IMG/VR virus record: IMGVR_UViG_3300025789_000021
Direction: 5' to 3' (one strand)
From: an uncultured virus (IMG/VR IMGVR_UViG_3300025789_000021)
Lineage: Duplodnaviria; Heunggongvirae; Uroviricota; Caudoviricetes
DNA length: 64,000 bases
The first letter of the stretch is position 1; each line of letters opens with the position of its first letter. The notes below the pieces were generated by a model. It made no database searches. It was given only the letters and a program-made list of their open reading frames with translations, and had not been told where the DNA came from. Positions 10,947 through 35,518 of this stretch are shown one piece after another. Position numbers and translations under genes: made by a program.

Positions 10947-11030
10947 GATAAATAAAGGTGTGTAGTTCACGGGACTCCCAATCCCCAACTACTCTAACGC
11001 TTAAGAGGAGCAATCAGCATGACTATTTAT
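10947..11030 (+). promoter_or_regulatory. Conserved structured leader of homing endonuclease (copy 1)
   Basis: GATAAATA late promoter, GTAGTT...AACTAC hairpin, CTCTAACGCT...GAGGAGCA.TCAGC ATGACTATTTAT. Near-identical to 35438-35518. Confidence 0.75.
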
Positions 11031-11687
11031 TACGTATACGCATATCTGCGAAAATCCGACAACACACCATATTACATTGGTAAGGGCAGTGGTAACAGGG
11101 CATTTAGAAAACACCGTGGGTTAACTGTTCCAAAAGACAAGTCTAAAATAGTAATATTAAAGTCTGGTCTCACCGAACTGTGGGCATTAGCAATGGAACG
11201 TTGGTATATTCGTTGGTATGGTCGTAAGGACAACAACACCGGTATATTACGCAATAAAACGGATGGTGGCGATGGGGCTACGAATGTGTCTGACGAGACA
11301 AAAGCAAAAATTGGTAAAAATAGCAGCTTGGCATTATCTGGTAGAGTTAGACCTGACCTAAGCATTGCGTTAAAGGGTAACCAATGTGCAAAGGGTGCAG
11401 TAAGGACTGATGAACAGAAAGAGAATGCCCGAATCTGGAAGACCGGAAGATCAAATACTAAAATACAGAATGATCGCATAAGACAGACATTAACTGGCGT
11501 AAAACATACCGAAGAGCGTTCATTAAAAAAATCAGCATCCACAAAAGGAAGAAAGAGTCCTCTAAAAGGCGTTCCTCAAACAAAAGTAACGTGCCCGCAT
11601 TGCAATAAAATTGGCGGGATGTCCAGAATGAAGGGTATACACTTTGATAAGTGTAAACTAAACCCTATCAATCTCGTTGTAGCTTAA
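11019..11687 (+). mobile_element. Free-standing GIY-YIG homing endonuclease
   Basis: YYVYAY...PYYIGKG...R, E...I...G, N.TDGG; NUMOD3-like basic repeats; C-terminal CPHC...HFDKC. Antisense to its neighbours. Confidence 0.85.
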
Positions 11688-11785
11688 TAAGAATGATGGT
11701 TATTGACGGTCAGTGTTCTTGGGGCATCAGTGACCATCATTCTAAGAAACAAGGTCTGTATATCTAAATTAAATTCTGTTATCAA
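11684..11785 (-). pseudogene. Truncated duplicate of helicase N-terminus
   Basis: TTG start overlapping the primase 3' end gives (M)ITEFNLDIQTLFLRMMVTDA..., matching helicase IQEFNDEIQELFIRMMITNP; stops after 33 aa. Confidence 0.75.
11690..11743 (+). terminator. Long hairpin at 3' end of endonuclease transcript
   Basis: AGAATGATGGTTATTGA ... TCAGTGACCATCATTCT pairs fully (with G-U pairs) on the + strand. Confidence 0.5.
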
Positions 11786-12743
11786 TTCTTCTTCTCGCCA
11801 TCTGAATCTTAATCTTACTGTTCGTTGCTGATTGCATTATACTTAGTAGAGTTGGTAGTCTTCCATATTTTACTATGGCATCATTTACATCTTTTATGTC
11901 ATCACCCCAGTTTGGAATGCTTACTTTGAATCCAAGTTCTAATGCAGGATCACAAATTTCAAGACCAGACTTATCCTGATCTGGAACGACAATGATCGTT
12001 CTGTTCAAATTTCGCAATATATCAACTTGCGTTTCGTTTATGGTATTTGATGTTAATGCACATCCGTTTATACTCAATGCATCAAATATGCCTTCAACAA
12101 CAATACAGTATTGCCATTCTGGTTTTTGAAAATCATAACCAAACAAATACCCGACCTGTTGTTCTTTAATGAACTTTGGTGTGCGGTTATCCAAATACCG
12201 ACTGGTATGTCCTACAATTTTGTTATTAAATGTGTATGGTATAATAATGCGATTACTATTTCTTCCTTCTTCATCCGGAGTTACCCTGAACGGATAATCT
12301 TTGTAATTTATATTTCTACTTTCTAAATAATCAATGAACACTTGATGCTTAGGATTGTTACTATCAATTAATTCTGATTTTGGAAGAGCGACTTCATCAA
12401 ACTTTATCTTCTTTTTCTTCTTGACAGTGCTATATAGTTCTACTAGATTCTTTTGCTTTAAACTGTCAAAATTCCACTCATTGATTTGTGAGTCATCTAT
12501 TCCAATCCAATGCAGCAGCATTTTTGTGTTACCGCTGAATTGTCTACCCAAAACAAAGCCGCATTTAAATCCGCAATTAAAGCAGTGATATGACCAGTTG
12601 GTTCCCTCACTAAACTTTATTCCGCCGCGCATACGTTTATCAGGCTTATGCCCCCGATGATGGCAGCAGGGTGCATTCACACTTGTCCATCCACTTGATG
12701 TGTGCTTTTTTCTTCCCGGCAGTAGAGATAGAATGTCAAACAT
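11769..12743 (-). CDS. gp61: DNA primase (gp61-like)
   Basis: Zn finger CC-H...HCFNC, RIIIP, TOPRIM VVEGIFDA, PDQD, KDVND. Confidence 0.88.
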   Translation of the reverse strand: MFDILSLLPGRKKHTSSGWTSVNAPCCHHRGHKPDKRMRGGIKFSEGTNWSYHCFNCGFKCGFVLGRQFSGNTKMLLHWIGIDDSQINEWNFDSLKQKNLVELYSTVKKKKKIKFDEVALPKSELIDSNNPKHQVFIDYLESRNINYKDYPFRVTPDEEGRNSNRIIIPYTFNNKIVGHTSRYLDNRTPKFIKEQQVGYLFGYDFQKPEWQYCIVVEGIFDALSINGCALTSNTINETQVDILRNLNRTIIVVPDQDKSGLEICDPALELGFKVSIPNWGDDIKDVNDAIVKYGRLPTLLSIMQSATNSKIKIQMARRRIDNRI

Positions 12744-12791
12744 AATCTATATTATAACAGACTTGACAGAAAAATCAAGTATTATGGTAAC

Positions 12792-13577
12792 TTAGCGAGA
12801 TAGAATGTTTGTTACGGCACCAGCATTGCTGGTAAATGCCATGCGTATATATGGATGATATCCGTTAACCACATAACCATAAGTATCTGTTACGTTAGAA
12901 TATGAAACATTGGAAATTGGATACCAATCGGTATCTACCTGACACGATCCTTCAATCAGAACAGAGCCAACATATTGATCATAAGTCGCCTGTAGTGTCA
13001 AGACTGGATTGTTATCAGTGCTGATAACACTGGTATAATAGGTATTAGCATTTGGATATTGATAATCTGGTGAAAGGTTTGCGTTATTCAGATTCGGAAA
13101 TGCCTGTCCAGTCGGAATAGTCACTTGACTGGACGGGACAAACGCCGGAAGCACAGAATTAACTATATTAATATCTCCTCGTGCACCGCCATTTTGGTCC
13201 ACAAATACAGGATAGTTTAAATTGCCGACTGGAATCTCAAGTGAGTAGTAACACTTTTGTGCATCAATGTCTGCCAGATCAGCGGCACCAAGGTCCAATG
13301 TTGCTATTCCTGTTAGGGGTAATTTTAGGTTTAATGTAGCTGCCAGCAGAATTGCATTGCCATCATAACTAAGTATTCTGCACGTGATAGATAAACCAGT
13401 AATGTCAATTGGCTTTTGTTCCTGATTAAGGAACTGGAATTGAATTTGATTGTCAACCCCTTTATTGAGGGTTAATGGTTTACTATATTGTGGCATATAT
13501 ATCCTCGGTGAAAAACCTGACTGGAGAATAACAATCTGCCGCTGAATGTATACAAAAACTGAGGTGGCATATGACAT
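12792..13577 (-). CDS. Putative virion structural protein
   Basis: 261 aa, beta-rich composition, late TAAATA upstream (~13604). Confidence 0.55.
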   Translation of the reverse strand: MSYATSVFVYIQRQIVILQSGFSPRIYMPQYSKPLTLNKGVDNQIQFQFLNQEQKPIDITGLSITCRILSYDGNAILLAATLNLKLPLTGIATLDLGAADLADIDAQKCYYSLEIPVGNLNYPVFVDQNGGARGDINIVNSVLPAFVPSSQVTIPTGQAFPNLNNANLSPDYQYPNANTYYTSVISTDNNPVLTLQATYDQYVGSVLIEGSCQVDTDWYPISNVSYSNVTDTYGYVVNGYHPYIRMAFTSNAGAVTNILSR

Positions 13578-13663
13578 GTTAAATTGTTACCCTTTCCATC
13601 TTGTATTTAGTCTTGTATATATGAAAATATTAAGTTTTAATCACAAGACTAAATATAAAAAGT

Positions 13664-14044
13664 ATGGATAATAATGATTTTTTTAACAAACTGACGCTGA
13701 ATCACCCGTTTATTACGGTCTGTGCCTACGCAAGTCAAGATTACGTGGGCATAATTCAGAACAGAGATGACATGGTTACTACCATATATGATTATGGATC
13801 AATAGTGCAATCTGAATTGAGAGAAAGATTTTTAGAATTAGGGGAAATATGGTGGTGGGAATCAAATAGAACTATTCCCATTAATATTTTTTTGAAAAAG
13901 GATTGGGATGTTTTTAAACCATACTTAAAGACATTTAATAATAAAAGCTTGGTCATACTTCATGGACCGGTAGTAAGCATCACCGATTTCTTGAAAAAAC
14001 GATCAAAGAGACGTTCAATTACTATGGTTAAACGTCTTCCTTAA
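13664..14044 (+). CDS. Hypothetical protein
   Basis: 126 aa plus-strand ORF behind TAAATA at 13650-13655. Confidence 0.7.
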   Translation: MDNNDFFNKLTLNHPFITVCAYASQDYVGIIQNRDDMVTTIYDYGSIVQSELRERFLELGEIWWWESNRTIPINIFLKKDWDVFKPYLKTFNNKSLVILHGPVVSITDFLKKRSKRRSITMVKRLP

Positions 14045-14249
14045 TTGACCAGTTTGGCATTCGCGAATGCTTCAGTTTGTCAAAATGATCTTCAATTTTT
14101 CTGAGTTCCGACAGCCTATCAATAGTCCACTGAATAATTACTGGTCGCATGTCACCACACGCCATATCAACCATGGCTTCTTCTCTCATGCGGACAAGAG
14201 TTTCAGTTGCTTCGTCATACTGAACAGGGTATTGAATAATATTTCGCAT
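14028..14249 (-). CDS. Hypothetical protein
   Basis: 73 aa, AGGA RBS, follows def. Confidence 0.5.
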   Translation of the reverse strand: MRNIIQYPVQYDEATETLVRMREEAMVDMACGDMRPVIIQWTIDRLSELRKIEDHFDKLKHSRMPNWSIKEDV

Positions 14250-14253
14250 ATTT

Positions 14254-14760
14254 TTATCCTTTTCTATTCATTTTCTTTAAATATTTTGTGCGTTTTTCTT
14301 TGGCCAGTTTCACATTCATGTCACTGGCTCGCTCATCAAACGTAATACCCAACAGATGATCTAATTCATGAAGGAATACACGGGCTTCAATGCCTGTCAA
14401 TTGACGTTCAATTACCTCTCCGGAAGTGGATTGATATTGCACTGTGCATGATGCTGGTCGCTTTACCTTGAGCCACAATTCCGGAAAACTTAGACAACCT
14501 TCAATTTCAACAATGGGGTCATCATCGGGAAAAGATACAATCTGTGGATTAATACACACGACCATCTTGGTAAAGTTTCCCATAATAAATATACTCTTGC
14601 TGATACCAACCTGAGGGGCGGCGAGACCTACTCCGCCGTTTTCGGTTAGAATTCTAACCATATCTTTTACCAACTCAGTAGGATCACCATCAGTTTCAAA
14701 ATCCCATGCAGTGGCTTCTGCATGAAGTTTTGGATCATTTTCTTTAAGTAGTTCCATCAA
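14254..14760 (-). CDS. def: Peptide deformylase
   Basis: GVGLAAPQVG, EGCLSFP, HELDHLLG motifs. Confidence 0.95.
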   Translation of the reverse strand: MMELLKENDPKLHAEATAWDFETDGDPTELVKDMVRILTENGGVGLAAPQVGISKSIFIMGNFTKMVVCINPQIVSFPDDDPIVEIEGCLSFPELWLKVKRPASCTVQYQSTSGEVIERQLTGIEARVFLHELDHLLGITFDERASDMNVKLAKEKRTKYLKKMNRKG

Positions 14761-14766
14761 TAATCC

Positions 14767-14943
14767 TTAATCATTTCTTAGAGTGTGCCAAATAATGTCA
14801 CCCTCATTAACCCAAACGAGAATATTATCGCCTTGTTGAAAAAGTTCAGCACTTAATCCTTGACGCATTTCACCAAACGTAGTCTTTTCACCATTCGGTA
14901 TTTTTGCACGTTCCCATCTGATTGAAGGCTGATTCTTAATCAT
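14767..14943 (-). CDS. Small hypothetical protein (58 aa, not in ORF track)
   Basis: MIKNQPSIRWERAKIPNG...WHTLRND fills the gap exactly; GGAG RBS. Confidence 0.5.
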   Translation of the reverse strand: MIKNQPSIRWERAKIPNGEKTTFGEMRQGLSAELFQQGDNILVWVNEGDIIWHTLRND

Positions 14944-15271
14944 CTCCGCGCTCCCTCAACTTCCGTTTTAGGGATTCATTTTCGCGTTTGATTTTGGAAA
15001 TCTTTTCATGAGACCAACTGAGTTCTTCATAGTTGTCTATAATGGACGTAATCTCATCGCGATTGATTTCGCGCAACTCATCGCCTTCCGGTGTAACGAA
15101 AAGCGTGTTAACGTCCCAGTCAAATCCGAGATAAACATGTTTTACTGGAACGCTTCCAGCAGGACCCATTTGTCCAACGCGAAATACAGGAATGACAACC
15201 TGCACTTCTTCTGGATGCCGATGACGAGATACAATATTATCAATCATTGTCTTAAGTTCAATCAGATTCAT
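14936..15271 (-). CDS. Hypothetical protein
   Basis: 111 aa overlapping both neighbours. Confidence 0.55.
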   Translation of the reverse strand: MNLIELKTMIDNIVSRHRHPEEVQVVIPVFRVGQMGPAGSVPVKHVYLGFDWDVNTLFVTPEGDELREINRDEITSIIDNYEELSWSHEKISKIKRENESLKRKLRERGDD

Positions 15272-15845
15272 TAATACTTCCTTCCGATATCAGATTCATA
15301 TGGACCACAACGAGTTGCGCATAAGATATTGCGTGGCTACGTTTAAACTGATAGCCGTTATCATCTTTCTCCCAAACTGCTTGACTAATCTCTTTCCAAG
15401 ACTTGCCAAGTAGATGTCGCTTTGCGGGGCGAATTGCTGCAAGAAACATAGCAAGACGAGGAATAGAGTCAATCGGCTCGGGCATTCTCTGAATGAAGTC
15501 GTAACTATTGTTGAGGTGAATTAATTGTTCAACAAACTCACGATTTTTTAGATTTGACCAATTAGGTTCACGCATCAATTCAATGATATGTTCTTCATTC
15601 TTCACATAGTTATACACGTGAACGTTAAGCAAGTCGAGCTTAAAATAACCGCGTTTGTCTGCTTCTTTGTAATCAACAGCAGCCATATCATGAACAGGAT
15701 CGTAAGGTATTTCGGTGATATAGACACCGCTGTTGTGTTTGCGGATAGGATTTACTTTTCGCATACCAGCAGGGATATGTTTTATAAGTGACAAGATTTT
15801 GTCACGATCACCCAAATCAATGTCAATATCACTATTAATATTCAT
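15258..15845 (-). CDS. Miniature DNA polymerase III alpha (DnaE)-like protein
   Basis: SDIDIDL, KHNSGVYI, GYFKLDLL, LAAIRP, GYQFKRSHAISY mirror DnaE motifs in order within 195 aa. Confidence 0.75.
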   Translation of the reverse strand: MNINSDIDIDLGDRDKILSLIKHIPAGMRKVNPIRKHNSGVYITEIPYDPVHDMAAVDYKEADKRGYFKLDLLNVHVYNYVKNEEHIIELMREPNWSNLKNREFVEQLIHLNNSYDFIQRMPEPIDSIPRLAMFLAAIRPAKRHLLGKSWKEISQAVWEKDDNGYQFKRSHAISYAQLVVVHMNLISEGSINESD

Positions 15846-16393
15846 GCGAGGTGCGTAAAACCAGCAGCGATCAGTTTCTGATAGGCTTTCTGAGCAATGA
15901 ATGCCTGACGCTCGGCGTCTTCAACGGCGATATGACTGGTCACATACCCATCATCCTTAACATTTACATTGGCAATTTTATATAGAGTGCGGCAGTCTCG
16001 GACAACCCAGAATTGGTATGGTATGTTGATTCCCAGTTGTCTCCACGCAGACTCAGCAATAGATATGTCAAAGGTTGCTCCGTTTGACCAAATACCATCA
16101 ATGTTCCAGCAAAACTTTGCCAACTGTTCCATACAATCCTTAAATGGAATTCTTCCGTCTTCTCCCATTGCTCGTTCAATGGCTTCTGGTGATTGCGTTT
16201 CCCACCACTTCAAAGTTGACTCACTGATAGTGCGTCCGTATACTTCCGATTGTTCATCAATCATTGGAAGCAATTGCAATCGCTCAGTAACTCCGGTGCC
16301 GCTTGGATCAAATTTTACTGCACCAACAGATAGAATAACAGAGTCCGGTGTGGTATCTAAAGTTTCAAAATCAATCATAATCTCAATAGTCAT
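15842..16393 (-). CDS. DEDDh 3'-5' exonuclease (Rv2179c/exo VIII-like)
   Basis: MIDFETL, WSNGATFDI, RDCRT, H.A.EDA. Confidence 0.85.
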   Translation of the reverse strand: MTIEIMIDFETLDTTPDSVILSVGAVKFDPSGTGVTERLQLLPMIDEQSEVYGRTISESTLKWWETQSPEAIERAMGEDGRIPFKDCMEQLAKFCWNIDGIWSNGATFDISIAESAWRQLGINIPYQFWVVRDCRTLYKIANVNVKDDGYVTSHIAVEDAERQAFIAQKAYQKLIAAGFTHLA

Positions 16394-16399
16394 TACTTA

Positions 16400-16690
16400 T
16401 TATCTCCATTTTAATAAAAAATATGTATGTAGTTTTTCATCTACTATTTCATATTTGTCAGTTATGTTTCCACTAACGATATTCATTTTTATACCGTAGT
16501 TTTTTTCAACATAGTCTTCAAACTCATAGGCATCAAACTGTCCTGCGAGCGCATCAAGCGTTTCCATATACTCTGCGCGAATTTTCTTTAATATATCCCA
16601 ATATTCCCAACGTTTCTTGCGAAAGTCAAGTTCTGGGTCTGATGGGTCTACATCAGCTAAGCTTTTTTTGGGAACCATTACCACAAACAT
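16400..16690 (-). CDS. Short protein, FxL[RK]W C-terminal family
   Basis: Ends YFLLKWR. Confidence 0.6.
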   Translation of the reverse strand: MFVVMVPKKSLADVDPSDPELDFRKKRWEYWDILKKIRAEYMETLDALAGQFDAYEFEDYVEKNYGIKMNIVSGNITDKYEIVDEKLHTYFLLKWR

Positions 16691-16731
16691 TATCCTTATC
16701 TTATAACAGCAATTACTGTAAATGTCAAGAA

Positions 16732-17013
16732 TTACTCACACAACTTCCAGTGAACATATGTTCTTTCATCTAAAATAATATGCCCGGATATCTTATACCA
16801 TCTTCCCAAATAAACAGGATCACTATAGTGTTCGTAGCACCATTTTTCCAATTCGGATGACCCTTTAACCAATCTGTCAGTGCCCCAGACCGGTATTCTG
16901 ATGAACTGCACCTCTTCCCAATTGCCGTTTATTTGGATTTTCTTTTTTATTTTTTGTGTTTGGGGGATTTGGTCTGTGATAATTTGAACTATCCCCATGT
17001 TAGATTGAACCAT
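16732..17013 (-). CDS. Short protein, FxL[RK]W-related family (divergent end)
   Basis: ELEKWC...YVHWKLCE. Confidence 0.5.
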   Translation of the reverse strand: MVQSNMGIVQIITDQIPQTQKIKKKIQINGNWEEVQFIRIPVWGTDRLVKGSSELEKWCYEHYSDPVYLGRWYKISGHIILDERTYVHWKLCE

Positions 17014-17222
17014 ACGTAATCTTTCTGATATCTGAACTTGACATCCATCGTGTCTCCCTGATACACCCAGCGGCAGTGACGTTCATGCTTATCAATGTGT
17101 TCCTTGAGCCAGTTTATCACTTCTGCATATTTCTTTATAGAGCCATGGATATTTACGGATACTTCATGCCAGCCGGGTTTAGTATTTTCCCATCCACGAC
17201 TTAAGTCATAGTGTTCTAACAT
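16989..17222 (-). CDS. Short protein, FxL[RK]W family
   Basis: EVINWL...FRYQKDYVWFNLTWG. Confidence 0.6.
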   Translation of the reverse strand: MLEHYDLSRGWENTKPGWHEVSVNIHGSIKKYAEVINWLKEHIDKHERHCRWVYQGDTMDVKFRYQKDYVWFNLTWG

Positions 17223-17223
17223 G

Positions 17224-17430
17224 CTATTCCCATCTCAACAAGAATGCTATCAGGTCCGACTCAGTTTTAAACTCTAAGATCATACCCTCCCGTATCCATC
17301 CCGGAGTGCATGCATCTGCCCATTCTTCAATCTCGTTACTTTTTTCAACATAATATCTCCAATCAACGATAGTCAATAATGGAAGTTTAAAATAATCTAT
17401 TTGCGAGAACTTCATAACCAAGAACTTCAT
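17224..17430 (-). CDS. Short protein, FxL[RK]W family
   Basis: EIEEWA...FKTESDLIAFLLRWE; ATGA overlap with upstream ORF. Confidence 0.6.
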   Translation of the reverse strand: MKFLVMKFSQIDYFKLPLLTIVDWRYYVEKSNEIEEWADACTPGWIREGMILEFKTESDLIAFLLRWE

Positions 17431-17648
17431 AACCATCTCAGTGCAAATAGAATTGCTGAGCTTTCATTATCAAAGTAGAATGTTTTGATTGTTTTATGTT
17501 CTGGTCCAATAGGACGATTACTTATCCAATTGCGATATGTTCCAAGGAAACCATCACAGTTATACATTGCCCACATTTCTAAGTCGTCTTTTTTATTGTA
17601 TGATATATTTTCATAATCAACATTGACTGTGATAATATCCTCAACCAT
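17427..17648 (-). CDS. Short protein, FxL[RK]W family
   Basis: DLEMWA...FDNESSAILFALRWL. Confidence 0.6.
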   Translation of the reverse strand: MVEDIITVNVDYENISYNKKDDLEMWAMYNCDGFLGTYRNWISNRPIGPEHKTIKTFYFDNESSAILFALRWL

Positions 17649-23806: not shown

Positions 23807-23817
23807 TTCATTTCTCC

Positions 23818-25967: not shown

Positions 25968-25971
25968 TTTA

Positions 25972-27705: not shown

Positions 27706-27753
27706 GGCGTATCTCCTGTTTCACTGTCAGTGTTATTGTAAAAGTGTTATAGT

Positions 27754-28038: not shown

Positions 28039-28112
28039 GTCAAACTCCGTTTTCTCAGTGTGTGTGTTTGATATACGCACCGGAAGAAAGGATGTCAACA
28101 TGTTTTTTCAGA

Positions 28113-28871: not shown

Positions 28872-28914
28872 GTTCTTAATGTATCTTAGTTAGAGGTGAA
28901 ATACAAGGGTAAAA

Positions 28915-29373
28915 TTACCCGATTGAAATATCTTCCATTCCTGCCGTGCGGAGGCGAACGATGTGGCCCATTTGCCATTGCTTGGCTTCAAGCCCCTTGA
29001 TAATGCCAGTCCACGTATTGCGAAGCAATGCTACTTCATTCATAAGAACTTCATAATCAATAACTTCATCTTCACCTTCCGCATACTTTTGAGCATCCTT
29101 TGGCTGAAGTGCACGATTGTAGTTTTCAAGATACTTCTTGAAATGTGTGTGTTTTATTTTACGAAGCCTAATATTCATGAAGTTAAGCACTGCTTCAATT
29201 TCTTGAAGTTGATTGAAGCGGTATTCTGTTATTCCGGGCAGTGAGGCAATGTTTTTTTCAACATTTCCGTATATCTTTACCTCACGTTTTGCTTGCAGTA
29301 ATTCATTTTCATAATATGCAATAAAATCAGGAAGATGACTTAAGTCCGAAGTAACTTTACTATACCAATTCAT
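28915..29373 (-). CDS. uvsY: Recombination mediator UvsY-like
   Basis: Helical 152 aa ending IIKGLEAKQWQMGHIVRLRTAGMED; close to uvsX. Confidence 0.7.
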   Translation of the reverse strand: MNWYSKVTSDLSHLPDFIAYYENELLQAKREVKIYGNVEKNIASLPGITEYRFNQLQEIEAVLNFMNIRLRKIKHTHFKKYLENYNRALQPKDAQKYAEGEDEVIDYEVLMNEVALLRNTWTGIIKGLEAKQWQMGHIVRLRTAGMEDISIG

Positions 29374-29648
29374 TATCCATAATCCTCGTCTTCATCTTCC
29401 TCAAAATAATCATCAAATAGGTCATCAATCTCTTCATGATATAGTCCATCATCCGGAGATTCTAAAAAAAACTCCAATGCGTCTTTAATGTCTTTATCAC
29501 CACGGAAAGTATGTTTAATTTCAGCAGGAGAAAAGTCTTCTTCAATAAGATAGTTAACTAAAGTTTCTGCTGCATCGTCAGCCACATTCCCGGCATCAAG
29601 ACTTGGTTTTAATATTTTCCAAATTTCACTGATAAGTGCTAAACTCAT
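29373..29648 (-). CDS. Acidic hypothetical protein
   Basis: 91 aa, operon-coupled. Confidence 0.6.
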   Translation of the reverse strand: MSLALISEIWKILKPSLDAGNVADDAAETLVNYLIEEDFSPAEIKHTFRGDKDIKDALEFFLESPDDGLYHEEIDDLFDDYFEEDEDEDYG

Positions 29649-30235
29649 TTTTCCTCCCCAATCTCACCAAATAGTGGATACCACGTGAATTCCATTCCTT
29701 CGGTAAACATCTGCTGACCAAAGCCCATGTTTGTAGTCTTAAATAAATAGCAATGATCCATAGAAGATATAGGTTTATTTACCTCTGTAATTTCCCCAGT
29801 TTCTTTGTTAAGATCAAACACATGGAACATGCCATTTTTCTTAATGGCATCAACTAATGCCTGACCATCATCAAAAATGGCACCATCCGCTATAACATCT
29901 TTGGTTACTTGTTCCTTTACCGCATACAATAACCAATATAATGCGGGTCCTTTTCTATACTGAACTGGAACAAAAACTATTGCTACGTCAAGATAATCTT
30001 TACCGGCAATTTTTGCATTTTCCAATGTCAACATGCCGACAATATTACCATCTGACTTAACTAACATAAATTTGTTATCGTAACGATATAGGGCATAATC
30101 TTTTCTTACATCAGCCAGTTTAGTTGCTTTCCCTAACAATTTACTATATGACTGCTGAAATTCTGATGATGTAGTAGGTTTTTCTGGAAATTTACCTGCC
30201 TGAAACGCCTCGGCTATTTGGTTAATCTTAACCAT
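29645..30235 (-). CDS. Possible GNAT-fold protein
   Basis: IVGML...VFVPVQYRKG resembles GNAT motif A (weak). Confidence 0.4.
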   Translation of the reverse strand: MVKINQIAEAFQAGKFPEKPTTSSEFQQSYSKLLGKATKLADVRKDYALYRYDNKFMLVKSDGNIVGMLTLENAKIAGKDYLDVAIVFVPVQYRKGPALYWLLYAVKEQVTKDVIADGAIFDDGQALVDAIKKNGMFHVFDLNKETGEITEVNKPISSMDHCYLFKTTNMGFGQQMFTEGMEFTWYPLFGEIGEEK

Positions 30236-31298
30236 CGTCATCAACCGTTTCATCCTCAATAAGTGCGATTGTAGCAGGATGCTTGCCAAATTCTGTCATG
30301 ATGGTATCAAGACATTCGTCGGTGTTTGCTTCCCATGCCTTTCGGAATTTTTTAATGATGGTTCCATCAATTTTCTTGTAAACAAGAGAGTTACCTTCCT
30401 TGGAGAGCAACTTCATTGATTCAAACATGTCAGTAAGCCCCGAATATGGACTCATTCCCGTATCATATGGAATCTTGACCTGAACCGATTCAAAAGGCTT
30501 GGCATAGCGTGTTTTCATAACTTTACATGCTGCGCGAATACCTCTGACTTCACTGGTCTTATTTCCATCTTCGTCTTCCTTGAGTTTAAGTTTTTTCATA
30601 GCAACAACGATTGATGATGCATATACGAAACCCTGTCCACCAGAAATTTTGTCATCCGGATCAAACATATCTTGCGAAGCATACGTGTGATTTGTTGCTA
30701 CAAGACCGACATTATGGCTACCGAACATGTTTACGCAGTTACGAACAAGCGCGGTAAGAGCCTTAGGTTTGCGTCCCATATCGCCTTTCAAGTCACCACC
30801 TTCAAACTGATTTACATCGGTTGGGGTTAGCAACATACCAAGAGAGTCAATGATGAATAGAACCTTTGGCTTGTCGGTATCTGTCATCTCTTTGTAACTC
30901 TTCATAAATTCACTGATGGTTTTAGCAACATCGTCAATCATTGCCATGTTCAGTTTAAGCAATTTGCTTTCACTTGTATCTACACCAAGTGCATGTAGCC
31001 ATTTTTCGTCAAGTGCATTTTCACTATCAATAAGAACTACATATATTCCTTGTTCCTGTGCATGCCTGACCAAATTTCCTGAACAGATATATGATTTTCC
31101 CGCTCCCGATTCACCTGCAAACACGGTAACTTTACCGAGCGGAACTCCCTTTTTGAAGTCGTTACTGATGCGATAGTTTAATGCATAGTTTCCCGTGCTT
31201 ACCCAATCTGTTGGGTCATTAAATCCGATGCTAAGACCATCAATTGCCTTAGAAATTCCTTTTCTGAATTTACTGATATCAAACGGCTTAGTTGTCAA
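30228..31298 (-). CDS. uvsX: RecA-like recombinase UvsX
   Basis: GESGAGKS, IDSENA, IIDSLG, TNH, SGG, K.R motifs. Confidence 0.92.
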   Translation of the reverse strand: MTTKPFDISKFRKGISKAIDGLSIGFNDPTDWVSTGNYALNYRISNDFKKGVPLGKVTVFAGESGAGKSYICSGNLVRHAQEQGIYVVLIDSENALDEKWLHALGVDTSESKLLKLNMAMIDDVAKTISEFMKSYKEMTDTDKPKVLFIIDSLGMLLTPTDVNQFEGGDLKGDMGRKPKALTALVRNCVNMFGSHNVGLVATNHTYASQDMFDPDDKISGGQGFVYASSIVVAMKKLKLKEDEDGNKTSEVRGIRAACKVMKTRYAKPFESVQVKIPYDTGMSPYSGLTDMFESMKLLSKEGNSLVYKKIDGTIIKKFRKAWEANTDECLDTIMTEFGKHPATIALIEDETVDDDG

Positions 31299-31310
31299 AT
31301 TAATCTCCTA

Positions 31311-31541
31311 TTATCGTGCAATTTGTTTTAGTTTATCGTTATATACTTGTTTTTCAAGCAGTTCCGGACTATTAATAGTCAACTGATCAATTTCATAATC
31401 ACTTGGAAAGTGGCGCAAAATACCGCGCGCGCGATCACGAATAATGCTTGGAACTCGTGGCGTTTTACCGGGATCGCAGAGTTCTTCTAATAACTTTTTT
31501 CCCTGCTTCAATGCGCGGTATCTATCCTCTGATGTTGTCAT
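31311..31541 (-). CDS. Small conserved protein (BPSL0761-like)
   Basis: MT..ER.RAL...TPRVP..IR.RA..ILRHFP. Confidence 0.55.
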   Translation of the reverse strand: MTTSEDRYRALKQGKKLLEELCDPGKTPRVPSIIRDRARGILRHFPSDYEIDQLTINSPELLEKQVYNDKLKQIAR

Positions 31542-31558
31542 ACGACTTCTCCTGTGTT

Positions 31559-31590
31559 AAAAAGTGGGGAGGGAAACCCTCCCCACATCT
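31559..31590 (-). terminator. Rho-independent terminator after SSB
   Basis: gtggggaggg-aaa-ccctccccac with A-run on the left. Confidence 0.85.
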
Positions 31591-31592
31591 AA

Positions 31593-32582
31593 TTACTTAG
31601 ATTGGCGAGCGCGGATCATCGCAAGGATGTCCTGTGCTTTATCAGTTGAAGTTGACTTTTCTGGAACCACGATTGGATCAACGTCAAATGGAACATCGTC
31701 ATCAATTGGTTCAGAGACAGTTGGTGCAGTAGCGGTTGCGCTGGTTTCAGCAGTCGCTGGTTTTTGAGACGCTACTGCACCTTCCGGTGCTGCCAATCCA
31801 TAAGGACGGTAGTATGCACCCCACTTATCGTTGTCATAAGGGCGACCATCAACGGATGCTTCAAACATTTCCTTGATAATACGAAGTTCTGCATCGCTTG
31901 GTTTCTTTGGTAGGAAACTCTTGAGGTCAAACAGACCGTGCGCGTCAATTGCTGCCAATTCTGCTTCTGTTAGCGGGGACTCTTTACGCGCATAGTTGGA
32001 CGTAGTGTAATCCCCATATCCTCCCTTGGCAGTCTTACGGATAACGAAATCAAGACCACTGACATAATCGGTTGGGAGTTCGCTCATTTCAGGGTCCATC
32101 AGGCCAGTTTTAATGATTGGAATGATCTGTGGCGTAATGATAAAACGGCGAATAGGATTGGCTGGAGCAACATCATCACCAAGTGGATTTACACGAACAA
32201 ATCCTTGGAACAGATATGTGCGCTTCTTCCAATATTTACCAGCAAGTTCCTTCAATGTGTCATCTTTATACCAAGGACGAACTTCTGCGAGAACTGGACA
32301 GTTATCGCCATACATTTCTACGCAAGGAACCTGAACAGTTAAAGGTTTGCTGTTGGAATCACCCTTAATTCCATTGAAGGGCAACTTGATCATTGCTCTT
32401 TCTACCCAGAAAAACGAATTTGTTGGATCATTATCTGGAAGAAAACGTAAAGTTGCTGTGGAGCCTTCTGTCATGTTCCAGAAGGGATAAATTGCATTGT
32501 CTGATTGTGAGTTGGAACCTTTGTTCTGTCCCTTGTTTTCTGCGGCTGCAATGCGAGCGCGGATTTCTGCTAAGTTTGCCAT
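31593..32582 (-). CDS. gp32: Single-stranded DNA binding protein (gp32-like)
   Basis: LRFLPD, VPC...CPV, GLDF..K, Y.TS, acidic C-terminal region. Confidence 0.85.
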   Translation of the reverse strand: MANLAEIRARIAAAENKGQNKGSNSQSDNAIYPFWNMTEGSTATLRFLPDNDPTNSFFWVERAMIKLPFNGIKGDSNSKPLTVQVPCVEMYGDNCPVLAEVRPWYKDDTLKELAGKYWKKRTYLFQGFVRVNPLGDDVAPANPIRRFIITPQIIPIIKTGLMDPEMSELPTDYVSGLDFVIRKTAKGGYGDYTTSNYARKESPLTEAELAAIDAHGLFDLKSFLPKKPSDAELRIIKEMFEASVDGRPYDNDKWGAYYRPYGLAAPEGAVASQKPATAETSATATAPTVSEPIDDDVPFDVDPIVVPEKSTSTDKAQDILAMIRARQSK

Positions 32583-32737
32583 TTGTTTTTCTCCTTTTAA
32601 ATGTGCTTTGTTTTGAGCTAAATGTTAGATTTAATGTTTTGCTTTTGGAGCACACTTTATGGTTATATAACAATAACCACTCAGTGTCAAGTATTTAGTT
32701 TCGGGATTTACCCAAAATATGTAATTATATTGCGCGA

Positions 32738-35416
32738 TCAGTATCTGAAACGCGCAATATCCAAGATTCTGGTAAGTTCATCATTCTCGGCACTTTCGTT
32801 GGCACCAACCAACTTACCAATGTTATTATTTTTGACTTTTTCGGTTGGTCCAAGCTGTCCTACGCGCTTTTGTTCTGGTCCTAAATTTTCTTCAAGTTCT
32901 TCTGATCCTGCTTCCGCTTCTGCCTCTTCACGCGAAGAACATGGTCCACCACGATCTACAATGTGACCATTCTTTGCACGGGTCCAGAACCATTCTCCAT
33001 GACCAAGTTCATCAGCATCTTGCCAGACTTTTATATCATCTGACATTTTCATTGCTGGATCATCCCATCCTTCAGGAATACCAAGAGGATTGTTTGAAGT
33101 TAAACTTTCGTTATCTGCTTCCGCAATGTCTTCTTTTGTGGTTTTATTGCCCCAGTTTTTGGCACCCTTTTTGCGACACTGCACTAATGCACCGCTTGCA
33201 TATGCAGAAGGCCAGACCTTGTAGCGAGATTTGACTTTACGATAACATGCATCCTGCTTTTCGTTAATCATCTCTTCGTTGACTAACTCACCGCCACAAT
33301 GCGGACATTTTTCTTCACTTTCATTTTTTACACAGTTAGGGTATGTCTTGCCGAACATCTTTTTGTTACCATCCTTATGATAACCCTTCCAGCAATTTTC
33401 ATCCATATTTTGCACATTCTCATGGGTTTCGCACATGCCGCAATCGGGACATGTCATTTCCATTTCTACACTTTCATTATGTTTTTTACGCCCCTTGCAA
33501 TGCGCTTTTTGACTAAATCCTTTTGGATGTGAACAGTCAATGCTGCTCTTATATTTTTGGCTCCACTTTTCAGCCAATAGATTTTCATCTAACGATTCAT
33601 CGGCTTTCTTTTTCTTAGTGGCAACATTTATTGCCTTGCCATGGCGGTCTGGGTTTGGGTCTTCTTTGCGTTTGCGAGTGGCTGCACTTGCTCTGCCTTT
33701 TTTGCCCAATGCTTGCGCCTTTTTCTGTGGGAGACACTTTGGTTTGCCCTCACTATCACTTCCTCTGGCACATGGACCCTTTATTTTCCCATTTGGACCG
33801 AATCTAACCCATTTTTCTTTAAACCACTTGTGGAGATTTTCTTCCAATTCAGTTGTTTCATTTACATCGTGAGGGTTTTCAAGAGTAGAAACGTGATGAC
33901 GAGTTACGTTTCCATCTTTATCTTTAATTGAATATGACTCACCGTTATTATGTTTTTTAACAACTGTTCCATGCAGTCCAGCATGATCACCATTTATGAC
34001 TTTAGTATTATCACCGGGACTAAGTTCAAATTCCCAGTTTTTAAATTCTTCGTCTATTTCAGTAGCTTCATACATGGTGTCATCTACTTTTTTCATAGCA
34101 GATGTTACCCCTGTTCTTCTTCTCGCGGCCTTTTTTTCCAAGTCAGACGCTTGACTGGCATACTTATTTTTGGCAGTATATGAAGTTAATTTTTTTGCTC
34201 TTTTTCTCAAATCTTCAGACTTATCAACTTTTGCTTTGTAATCGTCCGCAGCAGCCTGAATATATGGGTCTTCCGATTTTAATTCATCAAGTTCCATTGT
34301 TTCATTTACTAGAGCATCTGCCCAATCGGCAAGTTCATTTATTTCTCTTGCTTCTGATACGTTCTTGTGCAGGCGGGAAAGTATTGGCATTACCGATTCA
34401 ATGCGTGGATCAAGACTTGAGCTTTTAAACATCTCACTGATGTCTACCGAACCGTCATCTTCCATTAAGGTTGGCGTCCATGATTCAAAATACATGTTAT
34501 AACCGCGATGGCCAGTGAGTTTGTTAAGATTTTCACGTAAACCATTATAATGGTTGATGCCTTCGTTTACGAGGGTTTGAACAGATTCGTTAAACTGTTT
34601 ATTCTTGGTAGCACGAACAAATCCAGCCATTTTGCTATATTCTTCGCAGAGACCTTTAATATGGTTCCAGCGTTCATCGTTAGGAACGCCACCTTCTGCA
34701 ATGTGGCGAGCATATACGCGAGCCAGACCGGGGCGAGTAGTGGGAGCCAAGAAACGTTCCCCATCTACGTTTTCAAGATAGATTTTGGCAACGTTGCGAT
34801 AACGCTGTTCGCCTTCTTCAAGAGCACGGTTATGTTGCAAGACAATCTTTACATTAGGAACAGCATCGTTGTATGATGCTTTTTTACCCATTGAGTAATA
34901 TCCCTCTTCCACCTTTTCTTTACCGTAATTTTTGCAACCCTTTATATGGGGAATGGAAGATTTGGCTAAAGAATCACAGCAGTCTCGCATGCCTTTTCCG
35001 TATTTGCCTTCGCCTAATTTCTTTTTCATCTTGTAATATTCTCGCTGTTTCATATCGTCACCAAGACGGTCTTTGTTTGACAATTCAAAACTCATCTGTT
35101 TACGCTGTGCCCACTGTTTTAAAAGTTTAAGAAAACCCGTCCATGTATCATCATAGTCAAGCCCCGGTGTTTCTACATCAGGACTATCTTCTTGTTCTTC
35201 ATCATAATACACGATCAGTGTTTGGGCATCATCAATGCTTACCCAAACTTTACCATAATCTTCGTCATTTTTGATAAAATTAAATTCAATAACGTCCGCA
35301 TCTTGCGAAGCATTGACGCGCTGATTTTTGTAGTTAAGGGGTGTAGGTTTATAACCTCTTACTTTGAGAAGGTCATATAACTTATGATTGAATGAGGAGT
35401 TGTCAATGTTTGCCAT
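32738..35416 (-). CDS. Large modular late protein (putative head-internal polyprotein)
   Basis: 892 aa. KOW-like segment and several small Cys/Lys-rich modules separated by acidic xxE linkers. TAAATA at 35422-35427. Confidence 0.65.
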   Translation of the reverse strand: MANIDNSSFNHKLYDLLKVRGYKPTPLNYKNQRVNASQDADVIEFNFIKNDEDYGKVWVSIDDAQTLIVYYDEEQEDSPDVETPGLDYDDTWTGFLKLLKQWAQRKQMSFELSNKDRLGDDMKQREYYKMKKKLGEGKYGKGMRDCCDSLAKSSIPHIKGCKNYGKEKVEEGYYSMGKKASYNDAVPNVKIVLQHNRALEEGEQRYRNVAKIYLENVDGERFLAPTTRPGLARVYARHIAEGGVPNDERWNHIKGLCEEYSKMAGFVRATKNKQFNESVQTLVNEGINHYNGLRENLNKLTGHRGYNMYFESWTPTLMEDDGSVDISEMFKSSSLDPRIESVMPILSRLHKNVSEAREINELADWADALVNETMELDELKSEDPYIQAAADDYKAKVDKSEDLRKRAKKLTSYTAKNKYASQASDLEKKAARRRTGVTSAMKKVDDTMYEATEIDEEFKNWEFELSPGDNTKVINGDHAGLHGTVVKKHNNGESYSIKDKDGNVTRHHVSTLENPHDVNETTELEENLHKWFKEKWVRFGPNGKIKGPCARGSDSEGKPKCLPQKKAQALGKKGRASAATRKRKEDPNPDRHGKAINVATKKKKADESLDENLLAEKWSQKYKSSIDCSHPKGFSQKAHCKGRKKHNESVEMEMTCPDCGMCETHENVQNMDENCWKGYHKDGNKKMFGKTYPNCVKNESEEKCPHCGGELVNEEMINEKQDACYRKVKSRYKVWPSAYASGALVQCRKKGAKNWGNKTTKEDIAEADNESLTSNNPLGIPEGWDDPAMKMSDDIKVWQDADELGHGEWFWTRAKNGHIVDRGGPCSSREEAEAEAGSEELEENLGPEQKRVGQLGPTEKVKNNNIGKLVGANESAENDELTRILDIARFRY

Positions 35417-35437
35417 AGGACTATTTATGCTTACGGT

Positions 35438-35518
35438 GATAAATATAATTGTAGTTCACGAGATTGCAGTCCCTAACTACTCTAACGCTATCGAGGAGCA
35501 TCAGCTATGACTATTTAT
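35438..35518 (+). promoter_or_regulatory. Conserved structured leader of homing endonuclease (copy 2)
   Basis: GATAAATA...TGTAGTTCACG...AACTACTCTAACGCT...GAGGAGCATCAGCTATGACTATTTAT. Confidence 0.75.

Follow-up and report, generated by a model that had tools for sequence, protein, structure and literature searches.

In T-even phages, the homing endonucleases I-TevI, I-TevII, I-TevIII, segB and Aeh1 mobE are kept at low levels by a late promoter combined with a hairpin at the ribosome site; as late transcription begins downstream of the hairpin's 5′ arm, silencing affects only the long transcripts (PMC2988022). Antisense control of DNA-cutting enzymes has been described for bacterial insertion sequences. 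In IS10/Tn10, promoters face each other at the 5′ end of the enzyme gene, and the folded RNA-OUT of ~70 nt is complementary to the translation start region (RNA-IN) and blocks ribosome binding; because RNA-OUT can act in trans, this control grows with copy number (PMC5006887). In IS200, the cis-encoded sRNA art200 lies opposite the 5′ UTR of the transposase mRNA, and repression of the translation start is combined with secondary structure of the leader (PMC4513863). In the T4-like cyanophage S-PM2, CfrI, an antisense RNA of ~225 nt, is co-expressed with the homing-endonuclease gene on the opposite strand (PMC2984593).

Repeated elements next to such genes have also been found in environmental sequences. 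Dassa et al. 2009 described "fractured genes" in lake and ocean metagenomes with hairpins before nuclease genes, and 10 of the 5′ hairpins contain a TATAAATA element (PMC2677866). The PeSLs, cassettes of promoter and stem-loop in T4-like phages, which couple an early promoter of the sigma-70 type with a terminator stem-loop and flank ORFans in hyperplastic regions, have been read as recombination points (PMC4122927, PMC2839356). The automatic catalogue of viral structured RNAs by Fremin et al. 2023 holds IMG/VR motifs located directly 5′ of nuclease genes, among them DNAVirus_227, a motif of 67 nt with a terminator-like flag, represented by 58 aquatic sequences that all precede GIY-YIG genes (PMC10690425).

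The window analyzed here, i.e., the whole 64,000-nt stretch of DNA from an uncultured giant lake phage, contains two copies of a cassette of ~85 nt, read from the sequence at 10947-11032 (copy 1) and 35438-35520 (copy 2). An earlier note had proposed that the same leader occupies these two places, which was borne out by a covariance model built from relatives: it has exactly two matches in the 64 kb, with scores of 82.8 and 80.2 bits (E ~1e-17) that are far beyond chance. A repeat finder also paired 10979-11031 with 35467-35519 at 79% (family D17). Each copy opens with a late-promoter-like motif, GATAAATA, on the plus strand (10947-10954 and 35438-35445), 64-72 nt upstream of the start codon; in copy 1 it points into the nuclease gene. 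Its putative promoter function is suggested by the T4 late consensus, and the likeness to the T-even late promoter is at the level of the motif. The model alignment then places three helices, assigned to the minus strand. P1 (copy 1, 10962-10992, with GTAGTT at 10962-10967 and AACTAC at 10987-10992; copy 2, 35451-35480, with arms at 35451-35456 and 35475-35480) encloses P2 (10971-10975 with 10981-10985, and 35460-35464 with 35469-35473). P3 follows at 10994-11017 in copy 1 (10994-11001 with 11009-11017) and at 35482-35504 in copy 2 (35482-35489 with 35497-35504), where the alignment and the fold agree. On the plus strand, the loop and 3′ arm of P3 in copy 1 contain the GGAG ribosome site of the nuclease gene, bracketed by GCT/AGC and followed by the ATG at 11019; P3 of copy 2 lies around a GGAG ribosome site as well, with the ATG at 35507. 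Over codons 2-4 of each gene, the minus strand carries a second late-promoter-like motif, ATAAATA, i.e., TATTTA(T) on the plus strand (11024-11030 and 35512-35518), which points back over the fold. An antisense RNA is predicted on the minus strand for both copies, of ~72 nt at 10947-11018 and ~69 nt at 35438-35506. The sequencing runs listed as holding the locus, 24 of 24, are DNA.

Both copies head free-standing genes that had been taken for homing endonucleases. For copy 2 this assignment stands, since the ORF at 35507-36220 (plus strand, 237 aa) matches Pfam HNH_3 with an E value of 2.6e-13. For copy 1, the GIY-YIG assignment of the ORF at 11019-11687 (plus strand, 222 aa) is weak: the profile of its family (A4) matches GIY-YIG chains with an E value of 0.0014, the ORF has no Pfam match of its own, and some relatives in the family have sub-threshold matches to PF01541. 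The remaining genes of the window are all on the minus strand. The first ORF is antisense to both of its neighbors, a helicase gene (9436-10908) and a primase gene (11769-12743), and the second to an 892-aa gene (32738-35416) and the large terminase gene (36194-37741), with which its 3′ end overlaps by 27 nt. Across loci, the nuclease gene is antisense to both neighbors in 34 cases, co-oriented with both in 12 and in a mixed arrangement in 13, and it therefore needs a promoter of its own. Of 64 loci, 45 have their upstream neighbor on the antisense strand, mostly 0-100 nt away.

That the cassette heads free-standing homing-endonuclease genes is confirmed: in uncultured T4-like giant phages from freshwater it is present at hundreds of IMG/VR loci, and one genome can contain up to 13 copies. 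In IMG/VR, a 15-mer taken from the leader has exact matches at 123 loci or more, and all but 12 of the matches listed have the complete cassette; including this one, three pattern scans of IMG/VR gave at least 123, 123 and 127 loci. The covariance model R1 matched 99 of 100 loci from the third scan, and in four phage contigs, 244-525 kb long, it found 13, 13, 7 and 2 copies. For a complete 360-kb contig, flanks were retrieved for 12 copies: 11 head an intact nuclease gene and one heads a 33-aa remnant. The 13th copy, retrieved incompletely, is left out of this count. Clustering of 61 downstream proteins by their N termini gives five groups, assigned to HNH_3/HNH, GIY-YIG, SegE-GIY-YIG and DUF7487, plus a family without a name; the structural model of the latter has the I-TevI catalytic domain as its nearest match (TM 0.64-0.66 on the target, with a Foldseek E value of only 0.086). 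The cassette thus heads at least five N-terminal protein families, namely three GIY-YIG types, HNH and DUF7487. In these respects the earlier note proved right: it had proposed a portable cassette or noncoding RNA shared across nuclease classes, and the leader, rather than the nuclease, defines the mobile-element family. The cassette is also absent from Rfam. A gathering search of the whole window with Rfam 15 returned only tmRNA models (57762-58241), E-value searches at the loci of six relatives gave no match at E up to 1, and at copy 1 there were only chance snoRNA rows with E >5. In the GenBank phage set, the motif was found in no record and in no cultured phage.

The pairing of the three helices was assessed in 116 diverse copies (2179 cells over 19 pairs, with 500 shuffles). 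In this set, 95.4% of the cells are paired, vs 79.8 ± 0.5% after shuffling and 30-51% when the partners are slid. Compensatory change is found on both sides of 17 of the 19 pairs, and none of the 500 shuffles attained the observed values. Another set, with P3 alone as its seed, shows P1 paired in 100% of cases, with change on both sides in 6 of 6 pairs; among the relatives, four pairs of P2 and six of the eight pairs of P3 vary on both sides. The stems that had been drawn from the two copies are therefore real, covarying helices. Evidence for a ribozyme, for binding by the nuclease or for a mobility signal, which had been raised as well, was not found.

These data bear on whether the ~85 bp act mainly as DNA, i.e., as a patch of homology for the exchange of nuclease ORFs or the recombination of cassettes in the manner of PeSLs, with hairpins that are incidental or active in single-stranded DNA. 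Such a module would fit one leader standing before five unrelated N-terminal families, and it would fit the limits of the repeat: likeness between copies ends precisely at TATTTA, and metagenome contigs stack 8- to 40-fold over 10928-11030 only. PeSLs, as composite promoter-terminator motifs that mediate swaps, offer a precedent (PMC4122927). Homology exchange, however, preserves sequence and not pairing, whereas copies within one genome differ in sequence in all three helices, at paired positions, and still pair; moreover, the cassettes have no motif in common at their 3′ end and no recombinase accompanies them. We regard this explanation as very unlikely.

The two ATAAATA motifs face each other over the fold, each 5-6 nt from the foot of a helix. 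Their arrangement was examined in a parsed set of 226 elements, which includes at least three false hits and three elements parsed on both strands and in which, as in all cassette counts, related copies are taken as independent. The forward TAAATA is located 5 nt upstream of P1 in 167/226 elements. TATTTA is present in 199/226, at 5-10 nt after P3 and in 152/226 at exactly 6 nt; its distance is fixed relative to P3 and not to the start codon, and it is kept in three reading frames, with ORFs that start M-x-I-Y, M-Y-L or M-I-F-I. The reversed motif is thus no coincidence. Both motifs have the ATAAATA form of the other promoter-like sites of this phage, and GATAAATA also precedes 10 minus-strand ORFs of the window, at 3-42 nt from their starts. 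In the window overall, the promoter-like motif is not enriched (25 sites vs 22.3 expected). From their likeness to the T4 late consensus and the position of such sites before other genes, we infer that both motifs are promoters. Because they belong to one class, the design contains no obvious timing switch.

The facing hexamers are complementary, and the minimum-energy fold of copy 1 draws a helix between them. A two-state hairpin of the T4 type, as established for I-TevI, segB and mobE (PMC2988022), might be formed in this way: in read-through RNA, the forward TAAATA would pair with TATTTA and hide the ribosome site, whereas RNA initiated at the forward promoter, being without the 5′ arm, would be translated. 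This reading is largely refuted by the flanks of the hexamers, which do not covary, a C before TAAATA meeting a G after TATTTA in 1 of 31 cases. A helix of 6-7 A-U pairs closing ~70 nt would be weak, the 45 of 64 loci noted above have no co-oriented upstream gene to supply read-through, and the three covarying helices would be left unexplained. We thus hold it to be extremely unlikely.

Of the two strands, the one opposite the nuclease gene is the better fit for the conserved fold. For the same cells, the antisense strand is paired in 95.4% and the gene strand in 85.0%, and G·U pairs number 264 and 38, respectively. The antisense core is more stable in 193/226 elements (mean of -15.7 vs -12.5 kcal/mol). 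The minus strand of copy 2 folds exactly as P3′ and P1′/P2′, with -14.4 kcal/mol vs -7.2 on the plus (sense) strand, whose minimum-energy fold lacks P3. The stability of the gene-sense fold in the window copies is not unusual relative to shuffles (z scores of -1.13 and +0.43). On the gene strand, P3 has an A·C mismatch at position 3 in 217/226 elements and a C·A mismatch at position 5 in 147/226; at these two positions, A·C on the gene strand corresponds to G·U on the opposite strand. When both near-fixed positions are removed, 155 gene-strand A·C, i.e., antisense G·U, are counted vs 75 gene-strand G·U.

Positions 3 and 5 of P3 contribute most of the strand signal; they are nearly fixed, which could reflect a constraint on the spacer of the ribosome site.

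P1 and P2 fold on either strand. Because of this, and because the gene strand pairs in 85% of cells, a role on the sense strand keeps some probability. The fold might act in the nuclease mRNA, with P1/P2 as a 5′-terminal hairpin that stabilizes the message or binds a common factor, a weak P3 that tunes access to the ribosome site, and TATTTA serving the translation start or another signal. The predicted sense start is at the foot of P1, the ribosome site lies within the loop and arm of P3, and T-even phages do regulate homing nucleases through leader hairpins (PMC2988022). The two P3 mismatches in most copies, the greater stability of the antisense strand and a gene-strand fold no better than shuffles in the window argue against such a leader, which also leaves the fixed distance between P3 and TATTTA in three frames unexplained. 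We consider it doubtful, with a genuine chance of being right. The more specific claim of the earlier note, that the element is mainly an mRNA leader sequestering the ribosome site as in T4, was not supported, given that the pairing fits the opposite strand and that P1, P2 and P3 are all located downstream of the forward motif and the predicted sense start.

As the fold fits the strand opposite the gene, a small antisense RNA is probably made. The best explanation, to which we give about even credence, is a compact two-way control cassette in which an antisense RNA of ~75 nt covers the leader and ribosome site of the nuclease mRNA and restrains its translation. Transcription of the nuclease mRNA would begin at the foot of P1, driven by the gene-strand ATAAATA; the opposite-strand ATAAATA in codons 2-4 would drive a second transcript, which starts ~6 nt past the motif, at the foot of P3, and runs back over the leader. 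This transcript is predicted to form two stable hairpins, P3′ and then P1′ around P2′, and to end in the U-rich tract complementary to the forward motif. In line with this prediction, 194/226 elements have a P1′/P2′ hairpin (ΔG ≤ -7 kcal/mol) with a U-rich stretch (≥5 U in 8 nt) beginning no more than 2 nt beyond it, and on the gene strand there are at most 5 U after a hairpin. Given hairpins followed by a U-rich tract, a discrete RNA of ~70-80 nt is most likely. A simple terminator scan found none at the two window copies, and the U-rich tail may exist solely because the forward motif has this sequence as its complement. The antisense RNA would be fully complementary to the 5′ leader of the nuclease mRNA, including the ribosome site; its pairing would block or destroy the leader and keep the nuclease scarce, as RNA-OUT of IS10 and art200 of IS200 do for transposases. 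Production of this RNA, its end at the U-rich tract and its repression of the nuclease are suggested by motifs, fold and layout.

The reverse motif could also serve the neighboring gene. The motif and the fold would then be the 5′ end of a transcript into that gene, which would compensate for polar effects of the insertion and hinder loss of the cassette; this function would be compatible with antisense control. The frequent location of the upstream neighbor on the antisense strand, usually within 0-100 nt, favors this possibility, and so do the 34-to-12 orientation bias, which suits an outward-firing cassette, the fact that all other window genes lie on that strand, and the precedent of T4, where seg and mob genes contain promoters that serve host genes farther downstream and favor retention of the seg and mob genes (PMC2988022). 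However, motif and fold are equally intact in the 12 loci where both neighbors are co-oriented. Of 161 elements, 38 have a further antisense-strand TAAATA no more than 100 nt away, at 7-22 nt for 23 of the 38; the site at 35422-35428 in the window is one such case. These neighbors therefore have a motif to themselves. In addition, the fold is followed by a hairpin and U-rich tract in 194/226 elements, and a plain stabilizer does not need three conserved helices. An outward promoter with leader is, in our view, unlikely.

How does the cassette, read as the source of an antisense RNA, compare with the systems described above? It resembles PeSLs in being small, repeated, a composite of promoter-like and stem-loop elements, and situated beside variable genes (PMC4122927). 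Its identification with PeSLs was rejected: its motifs belong to the late TAAATA class, a search for sigma-70-like sites at copy 2 gave none, and it heads nuclease genes; in addition, the available account of PeSLs describes no covarying multi-helix fold (PMC4122927). DNAVirus_227 was compared by its catalogue description only, and its name has no occurrence in the main text of Fremin et al. 2023 (PMC10690425). With the loci of Dassa et al. 2009, the cassette shares uncultured T4-like phages, partly from freshwater, free-standing GIY-YIG and other nucleases, and the retention of a hairpin after loss of the nuclease gene, at one locus there and at L379 here (PMC2677866). The MEME motifs 1 and 2 of that study form a single anti-ribosome-site hairpin and have other sequences, and their identity with the cassette was rejected, as the instances in its Figure S4 differ from every conserved block; a covariation test, an antisense reading or a reversed motif is not reported in its available text (PMC2677866).

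The T-even nucleases have in common with the cassette a late-promoter motif directly upstream and RNA structure around the ribosome site; in the cassette, unlike in these, the helices are all downstream of the predicted start, the fold prefers the other strand, and there is a second, reversed motif. The original study of the CfrI antisense RNA is reportedly that of Millard et al. 2010. CfrI parallels our reading as an antisense RNA opposite a homing nuclease in a T4-like phage, but it is a single locus that links the nuclease gene to psbA and not a dispersed family (PMC2984593). With art200 of IS200, the predicted RNA shares its position opposite the 5′ leader of the enzyme mRNA, and the cassette would likewise join repression of the translation start to structure in the leader, a likeness of layout; IS200 is a bacterial insertion sequence and art200 is Hfq dependent, whereas the cassette belongs to phages (PMC4513863). 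Like IS10, the cassette combines facing motifs at the 5′ end, a DNA-cutting enzyme of the mobile element itself and a predicted antisense RNA of ~70 nt (PMC5006887). Unlike IS10, it resides in a lytic phage, controls a homing endonuclease rather than a transposase if our reading is right, and carries T4-late-like motifs, and its predicted RNA consists of two hairpins with three covarying helices and stops just before the start codon.

Two look-alike leaders ahead of two plus-strand ORFs, as described in the earlier note, were found at 10947-11032 and 35438-35520. Both copies share GATAAATA, followed by a GTAGTT/AACTAC stem enclosing a variable hairpin, by GCT...AGC flanking a GGAG ribosome site, by ATG and then by TATTTA, and the repeat finder couples them (family D17, 53 nt, 79%). 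The ORF behind copy 2 (35507-36220) is a Pfam HNH_3 match (E 2.6e-13). The protein encoded behind copy 1 (11019-11687) has no Pfam match itself; its family profile weakly matches GIY-YIG chains (E 0.0014), with sub-threshold PF01541 matches in some family members. As the remaining sizeable genes of the 64-kb window are all on the minus strand, both nuclease genes lie antisense between phage genes, copy 1 between those for a DnaB-type helicase and a primase and copy 2 between those for an 892-aa protein and the large terminase. The phage is T4-like, since the window encodes UvsX, UvsY, a gp32-like SSB, RNA ligase, thymidylate synthase and DHFR.

Two other nuclease ORFs of the window lack the cassette. 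The 435-aa ORF at 49645-50952 (minus strand; PHROG 'HNH endonuclease' phrog_1314, E 8.5e-105) has the same orientation as the phage genes. At 61591-63879 (minus strand), a UDP-glucose dehydrogenase gene is apparently split into 63067-63879 and 61591-62166 by a co-oriented homing endonuclease ORF (62163-63047, phrog_314), a 'fractured gene' layout; ATAAATA lies 3 nt ahead of the start of this ORF, which is without the structured cassette. The minus strand also encodes a peptide deformylase (14254-14760, phrog_2890, E 2.6e-35), as well as very large ORFs at 1-3479 (at least 1159 aa) and 38047-41565 (1172 aa) with internal direct-repeat families, which probably specify fibre- or adhesin-like proteins. 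Four copies of an internal repeat are spaced by 72 nt at 40449-40808, other repeats are common to both large ORFs, and PHROG gave no match to the 1172-aa ORF.

The cassette folds into three helices. P1 is 6 bp long; P2, of 4-5 bp with a variable loop, sits inside P1 beyond a small internal loop; and P3, of 8 bp, immediately follows P1, with the ribosome site in its loop and 3′ arm. An exact 15-mer of the leader occurs at at least 123 IMG/VR loci, and the whole cassette is present in all but 12 of the matches listed, those 12 (11 plus L054) being without the leader context. Two further pattern scans of IMG/VR, one fixing the outer stem only (scan 2) and the other the ribosome-site region only (scan 3), gave at least 123 and at least 127 loci. 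Each of the three scans left one different helix unconstrained, and in every scan that helix showed compensatory change: P2 in set 1, P3 in set 2, with variants including five different 5-bp cores, and P1 in set 3, with more than 12 different 6-bp versions. Over 116 diverse copies, 95.4% of 2179 cells were paired; shuffles gave 79.8 +/- 0.5%, and when the partners were slid the figure was 30-51%. Changes on both sides occurred at 17 of the 19 pairs (322 cells), and 0 of 500 shuffles reached the observed values. When set 3 was aligned to the model (90 distinct rows), P1 was 100% paired and 6/6 of its pairs had changed on both sides. The shuffle, slid-partner and set-3 tests all indicate that the stems are real and covary.

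The 12 copies inside one genome vary in all three helices and yet keep their pairing, which argues for selection on structure rather than simple copying. This weighs against a DNA-level shuffling module of the kind represented by PeSLs, described as early-promoter/stem-loop cassettes (PMC4122927), and we consider such a module very unlikely.

The covariance model R1, built from relatives (82 positions, 19 pairs), matched 99 of the 100 scan-3 loci given to it. In the window its matches were confined to the two known places, and it found 0 copies in the record nearest to the window, a 64-kb fragment rated 18% complete (G001). Phage contigs of 361, 333, 244 and 525 kb carry 13, 13, 7 and 2 copies, respectively. 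In the 361-kb contig, which is complete, an intact nuclease ORF stands behind 11 of the 12 copies whose flank was examined and a 33-aa remnant behind the other one; the 13th copy, partly covered, is followed by an ORF of at least 236 aa. In four lake runs, metagenome contigs showed an 8- to 40-fold pile-up confined to 10928-11030, and their likeness stops at 11029-11031, the end of TATTTA(T).

Some loci depart from this arrangement. At L379:1960-2090 (minus strand; ~90216-90298 of phage record G002), an intact cassette is followed by a 33-aa GIY-YIG-type remnant and then by the next phage gene, so that the control unit has outlived the nuclease gene. A truncated cassette at L138:78-163 has kept the forward motif, P1, P2 and the 5′ arm of P3, while the ribosome site, start codon and nuclease ORF are gone. 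L196, L227, L160 and L204 have the usual P1 and P2, but P3 is replaced by a longer and different region, and the start codon is more distant and is followed by a longer spacer and TATTTA; these loci may represent a sister form of the cassette. A search for nuclease-less alleles in contigs of four DNA runs on 9800-12600 yielded no clean joint removing the cassette, and the joints seen there derive from low-likeness relatives. No common 3′-boundary motif of the cassettes was found, the enriched words being coding sequence from a C-terminal zinc-finger-like stretch.

The earlier note had proposed that the leader is common to unrelated nuclease classes, and when 61 downstream proteins, all complete and 100 aa or longer, were grouped by their first 100 residues, they indeed fell into five clusters (20, 19, 18, 3 and 1). 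Pfam names found downstream were HNH_3 or HNH, GIY-YIG (mostly sub-threshold), SegE-GIY-YIG, NUMOD3 and DUF7487; 24 of the 59 proteins scanned had no Pfam family at E <=0.01. The structure model of the largest unnamed family (A5) has a mean pLDDT of 72, above 90 in the first 80 residues, and its best Foldseek matches are the I-TevI catalytic domain (TM 0.66 and 0.64 on the target), with an E value of only 0.086. Profile comparison of the two large GIY-YIG-like families aligned a 17-column NUMOD-like stretch and nothing more.

At blastn sensitivity, 50,697 GenBank phage records held no close relative of either locus and no match to the leader, and no cultured carrier of the cassette is known among them. 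No family of Rfam 15 matched the cassette. The genome_contigs collection gave six pattern matches, of which four were true model matches (L387, L388, L390 and L391) on MAG contigs labelled Bacteroidota: Mucilaginibacter, 'Bacteroides', a Bacteroidetes bacterium and Haliscomenobacter. These may hint at the host or be mis-binned phage contigs, and the hint is weak because phage contigs get binned into MAGs. The labels sit oddly beside the two-piece (permuted) tmRNA gene of alphaproteobacterial type at 57762-58241 of the window (minus strand; RF01849, 78.7 bits; RF04321, 74.3 bits). The cassette is a real, widespread and uncatalogued structured element, and its two-way layout is unusual.

On sequence grounds, the conserved fold belongs to the strand opposite the nuclease gene. 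We parsed 226 elements, a set that includes at least three false matches and three elements parsed on both strands. On the gene strand, position 3 of P3 is A·C in 217 of them, and position 5 is C·A in 147 and U-A in 56; both positions pair on the opposite strand, where they read G·U and U·G/U-A. Pairing in the 2179 cells counted above amounted to 95.4% on the antisense strand and 85.0% on the gene strand, with 264 versus 38 G·U pairs. Leaving out the two near-fixed P3 positions, the G·U bias toward the antisense strand was 155 to 75 (binomial p 1.4e-7, related copies being counted as independent). P1 alone gave 16 to 6, and P1 in set 3 had 11 G·U pairs and 0 unpaired cells on the antisense strand. 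The core is more stable on that strand in 193 of the 226 elements (mean -15.7 versus -12.5 kcal/mol). The antisense strand of window copy 2 folds to exactly P3′ and P1′/P2′, the counterparts of the three helices (-14.4 versus -7.2). For the sense leaders of the window, stability does not exceed that of shuffles, and we regard a function of the sense-strand leader as unlikely.

In T-even nucleases, a late promoter inside a ribosome-site hairpin limits expression (PMC2988022), and a hairpin of this type had been suggested for the leader. It was not borne out, as P3 is mismatched on the gene strand and the letters on either side of the two hexamers show no covariation. The latter finding largely refutes the classical T4 two-state hairpin, to which we accord hardly any probability. 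It also rules out a closing helix between TAAATA and TATTTA.

The helices are framed by two promoter-like motifs that face each other. Of the 226 elements, 167 have 5 nt between the end of the forward TAAATA and P1. Beyond P3, TATTTA begins at a distance of 6 nt in 152 elements and of 5-10 nt in 199; the remaining 27 mostly have one-letter variants such as TACTTA. ORFs begin over TATTTA with M-x-I-Y, M-Y-L, M-I-F-I or M-L-F. The reversed ATAAATA noted earlier in the first codons is therefore conserved in a position tied to P3 whatever the ORF start, and because the start codon shifts while TATTTA stays fixed, the constraint acts on DNA or RNA and not on protein. Read on the minus strand, TATTTA is ATAAATA, identical in form to the forward motif. 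T4 late transcripts start ~6 nt after the promoter motif. With this spacing, the predicted transcript of each strand would start at the foot of a helix, and the overlap would be exactly the folded ~60 nt.

ATAAATA is the core of the T4 late promoter TATAAATA (PMC2677866). In the window it lies on the coding strand 3-42 nt ahead of 10 minus-strand ORF starts, often as GATAAATA, and is not enriched overall (25 sites versus 22.3 expected). Several other sites in the window are 3-10 nt ahead of listed ORF starts, which indicates either that starts were called too far upstream or that late mRNAs are nearly leaderless. One site (58207-58213) is within the 5′ part of the tmRNA gene.

On the antisense strand, P1′ is followed by a U-rich tract, the complement of the A-rich spacer and forward motif. 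At least 5 U among 8 nt, no more than 2 nt beyond a P1′/P2′ hairpin (<= -7 kcal/mol), were found in 194 of the 226 elements, and the gene strand has at most 5 U after P1, usually 3. The three positions ahead of the conserved T are A in 121-148 of the 226 elements; other ATAAATA sites of the window have mixed letters after the motif. This U-rich 3′ end is only suggestive, because the tract overlaps the forward motif, and a simple terminator scan found no terminator at copy 1 or copy 2. None of the 24 runs found for positions 10400-12000 was an RNA run. A conserved small ORF on the antisense strand is unlikely, judging by eye from the alignments, because loop and P2 lengths vary out of frame.

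We give about an even chance to the explanation that the cassette makes a folded antisense RNA of ~70-80 nt that restrains the nuclease mRNA. This RNA would pair with the mRNA leader, including the ribosome site, and the pairing would limit translation or trigger cleavage. The gene-strand mismatches in P3 would leave the ribosome site usable and keep a hairpin-plus-U signal out of the mRNA.

The cassette might also supply the gene next to it with an outward-directed promoter and a leader, a role compatible with antisense control. Promoters for neighbouring genes are reported within some seg and mob genes, and segD is antisense (PMC2988022). Both flanks could be read at 59 loci: at 34 of these the nuclease gene runs against both neighbours, at 12 it runs with both, and 13 are mixed (p ~0.002). 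The upstream neighbour is on the opposite strand at 45 of 64 loci (p ~0.002). Given this bias, the nuclease gene needs its own promoter, and an outward-firing cassette would be least harmful when antisense to its neighbours. The cassette is, however, as intact in co-oriented loci as elsewhere. Neighbours also often have their own motif, since a second antisense-strand TAAATA lies within 100 nt onward in 38 of 161 elements, at 7-22 nt in 23 of the 38. At copy 2, ATAAATA at 35422-35428 (minus strand) is 10 nt past the end of the cassette and 5 nt ahead of the start of the 892-aa gene. We find the neighbour-promoter role doubtful, and the sequence comparisons point to a function that belongs to the nuclease gene itself more than to one of this kind alone.

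In a more speculative reading, to which we give little probability, the cassettes, with up to 13 per genome, would form a copy-number-sensing network in which each antisense RNA also acts in trans on other nuclease leaders and a shared RNA code throttles the nucleases. Targets would include leaders of co-infecting phages, as in the multi-copy inhibition of IS10, and the variable P2, together with the within-genome versions of P1 and P3, would set which cassettes cross-talk ('incompatibility groups'). If so, nucleases of different families would be jointly throttled, and a phage could silence those of an incoming rival.

In large phages, the principal selfish genes are those for homing endonucleases. 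To our knowledge, their restraint has been described for a handful of T-even cases alone, every one of them with a separate hairpin. The cassette is a single module at the RNA level that is common to several nuclease families, in hundreds of genomes of uncultured phages. Its strongly covarying motif is ready for Rfam and marks intact and decayed nuclease cassettes in metagenomes, and the compact 85-bp two-way late-phase expression unit may be of use in phage engineering. If the antisense reading is true, the cassette would be the first instance of a conserved antisense RNA family linked to phage homing genes.

A full-text search of the literature library found no description of the motif. In 'fractured genes' from lakes and the ocean, Dassa et al. 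(2009) reported nuclease genes preceded by hairpins, of which 10 include TATAAATA; the hairpin motifs given there differ in sequence from the cassette (PMC2677866). An automatic catalogue contains unnamed motifs ahead of nuclease genes, among which DNAVirus_227 is possibly an earlier detection of the cassette without interpretation (PMC10690425). In cyanophage S-PM2, an antisense RNA of ~225 nt, CfrI, is described opposite a nuclease gene (PMC2984593). The nearest working analogues are RNA-OUT of IS10 (PMC5006887) and art200 of IS200 (PMC4513863). RNA-OUT is described as a 69-nt RNA from facing promoters that binds the transposase mRNA by pairing in its start region and acts in trans with copy number (PMC5006887). 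The cassette would be of this kind, in that a mobile element restrains its own nuclease by antisense RNA, the nucleases in this case being phage homing endonucleases, and an antisense mode of action would extend the self-restraint logic of IS10 and IS200 from bacterial transposons to phage homing genes.
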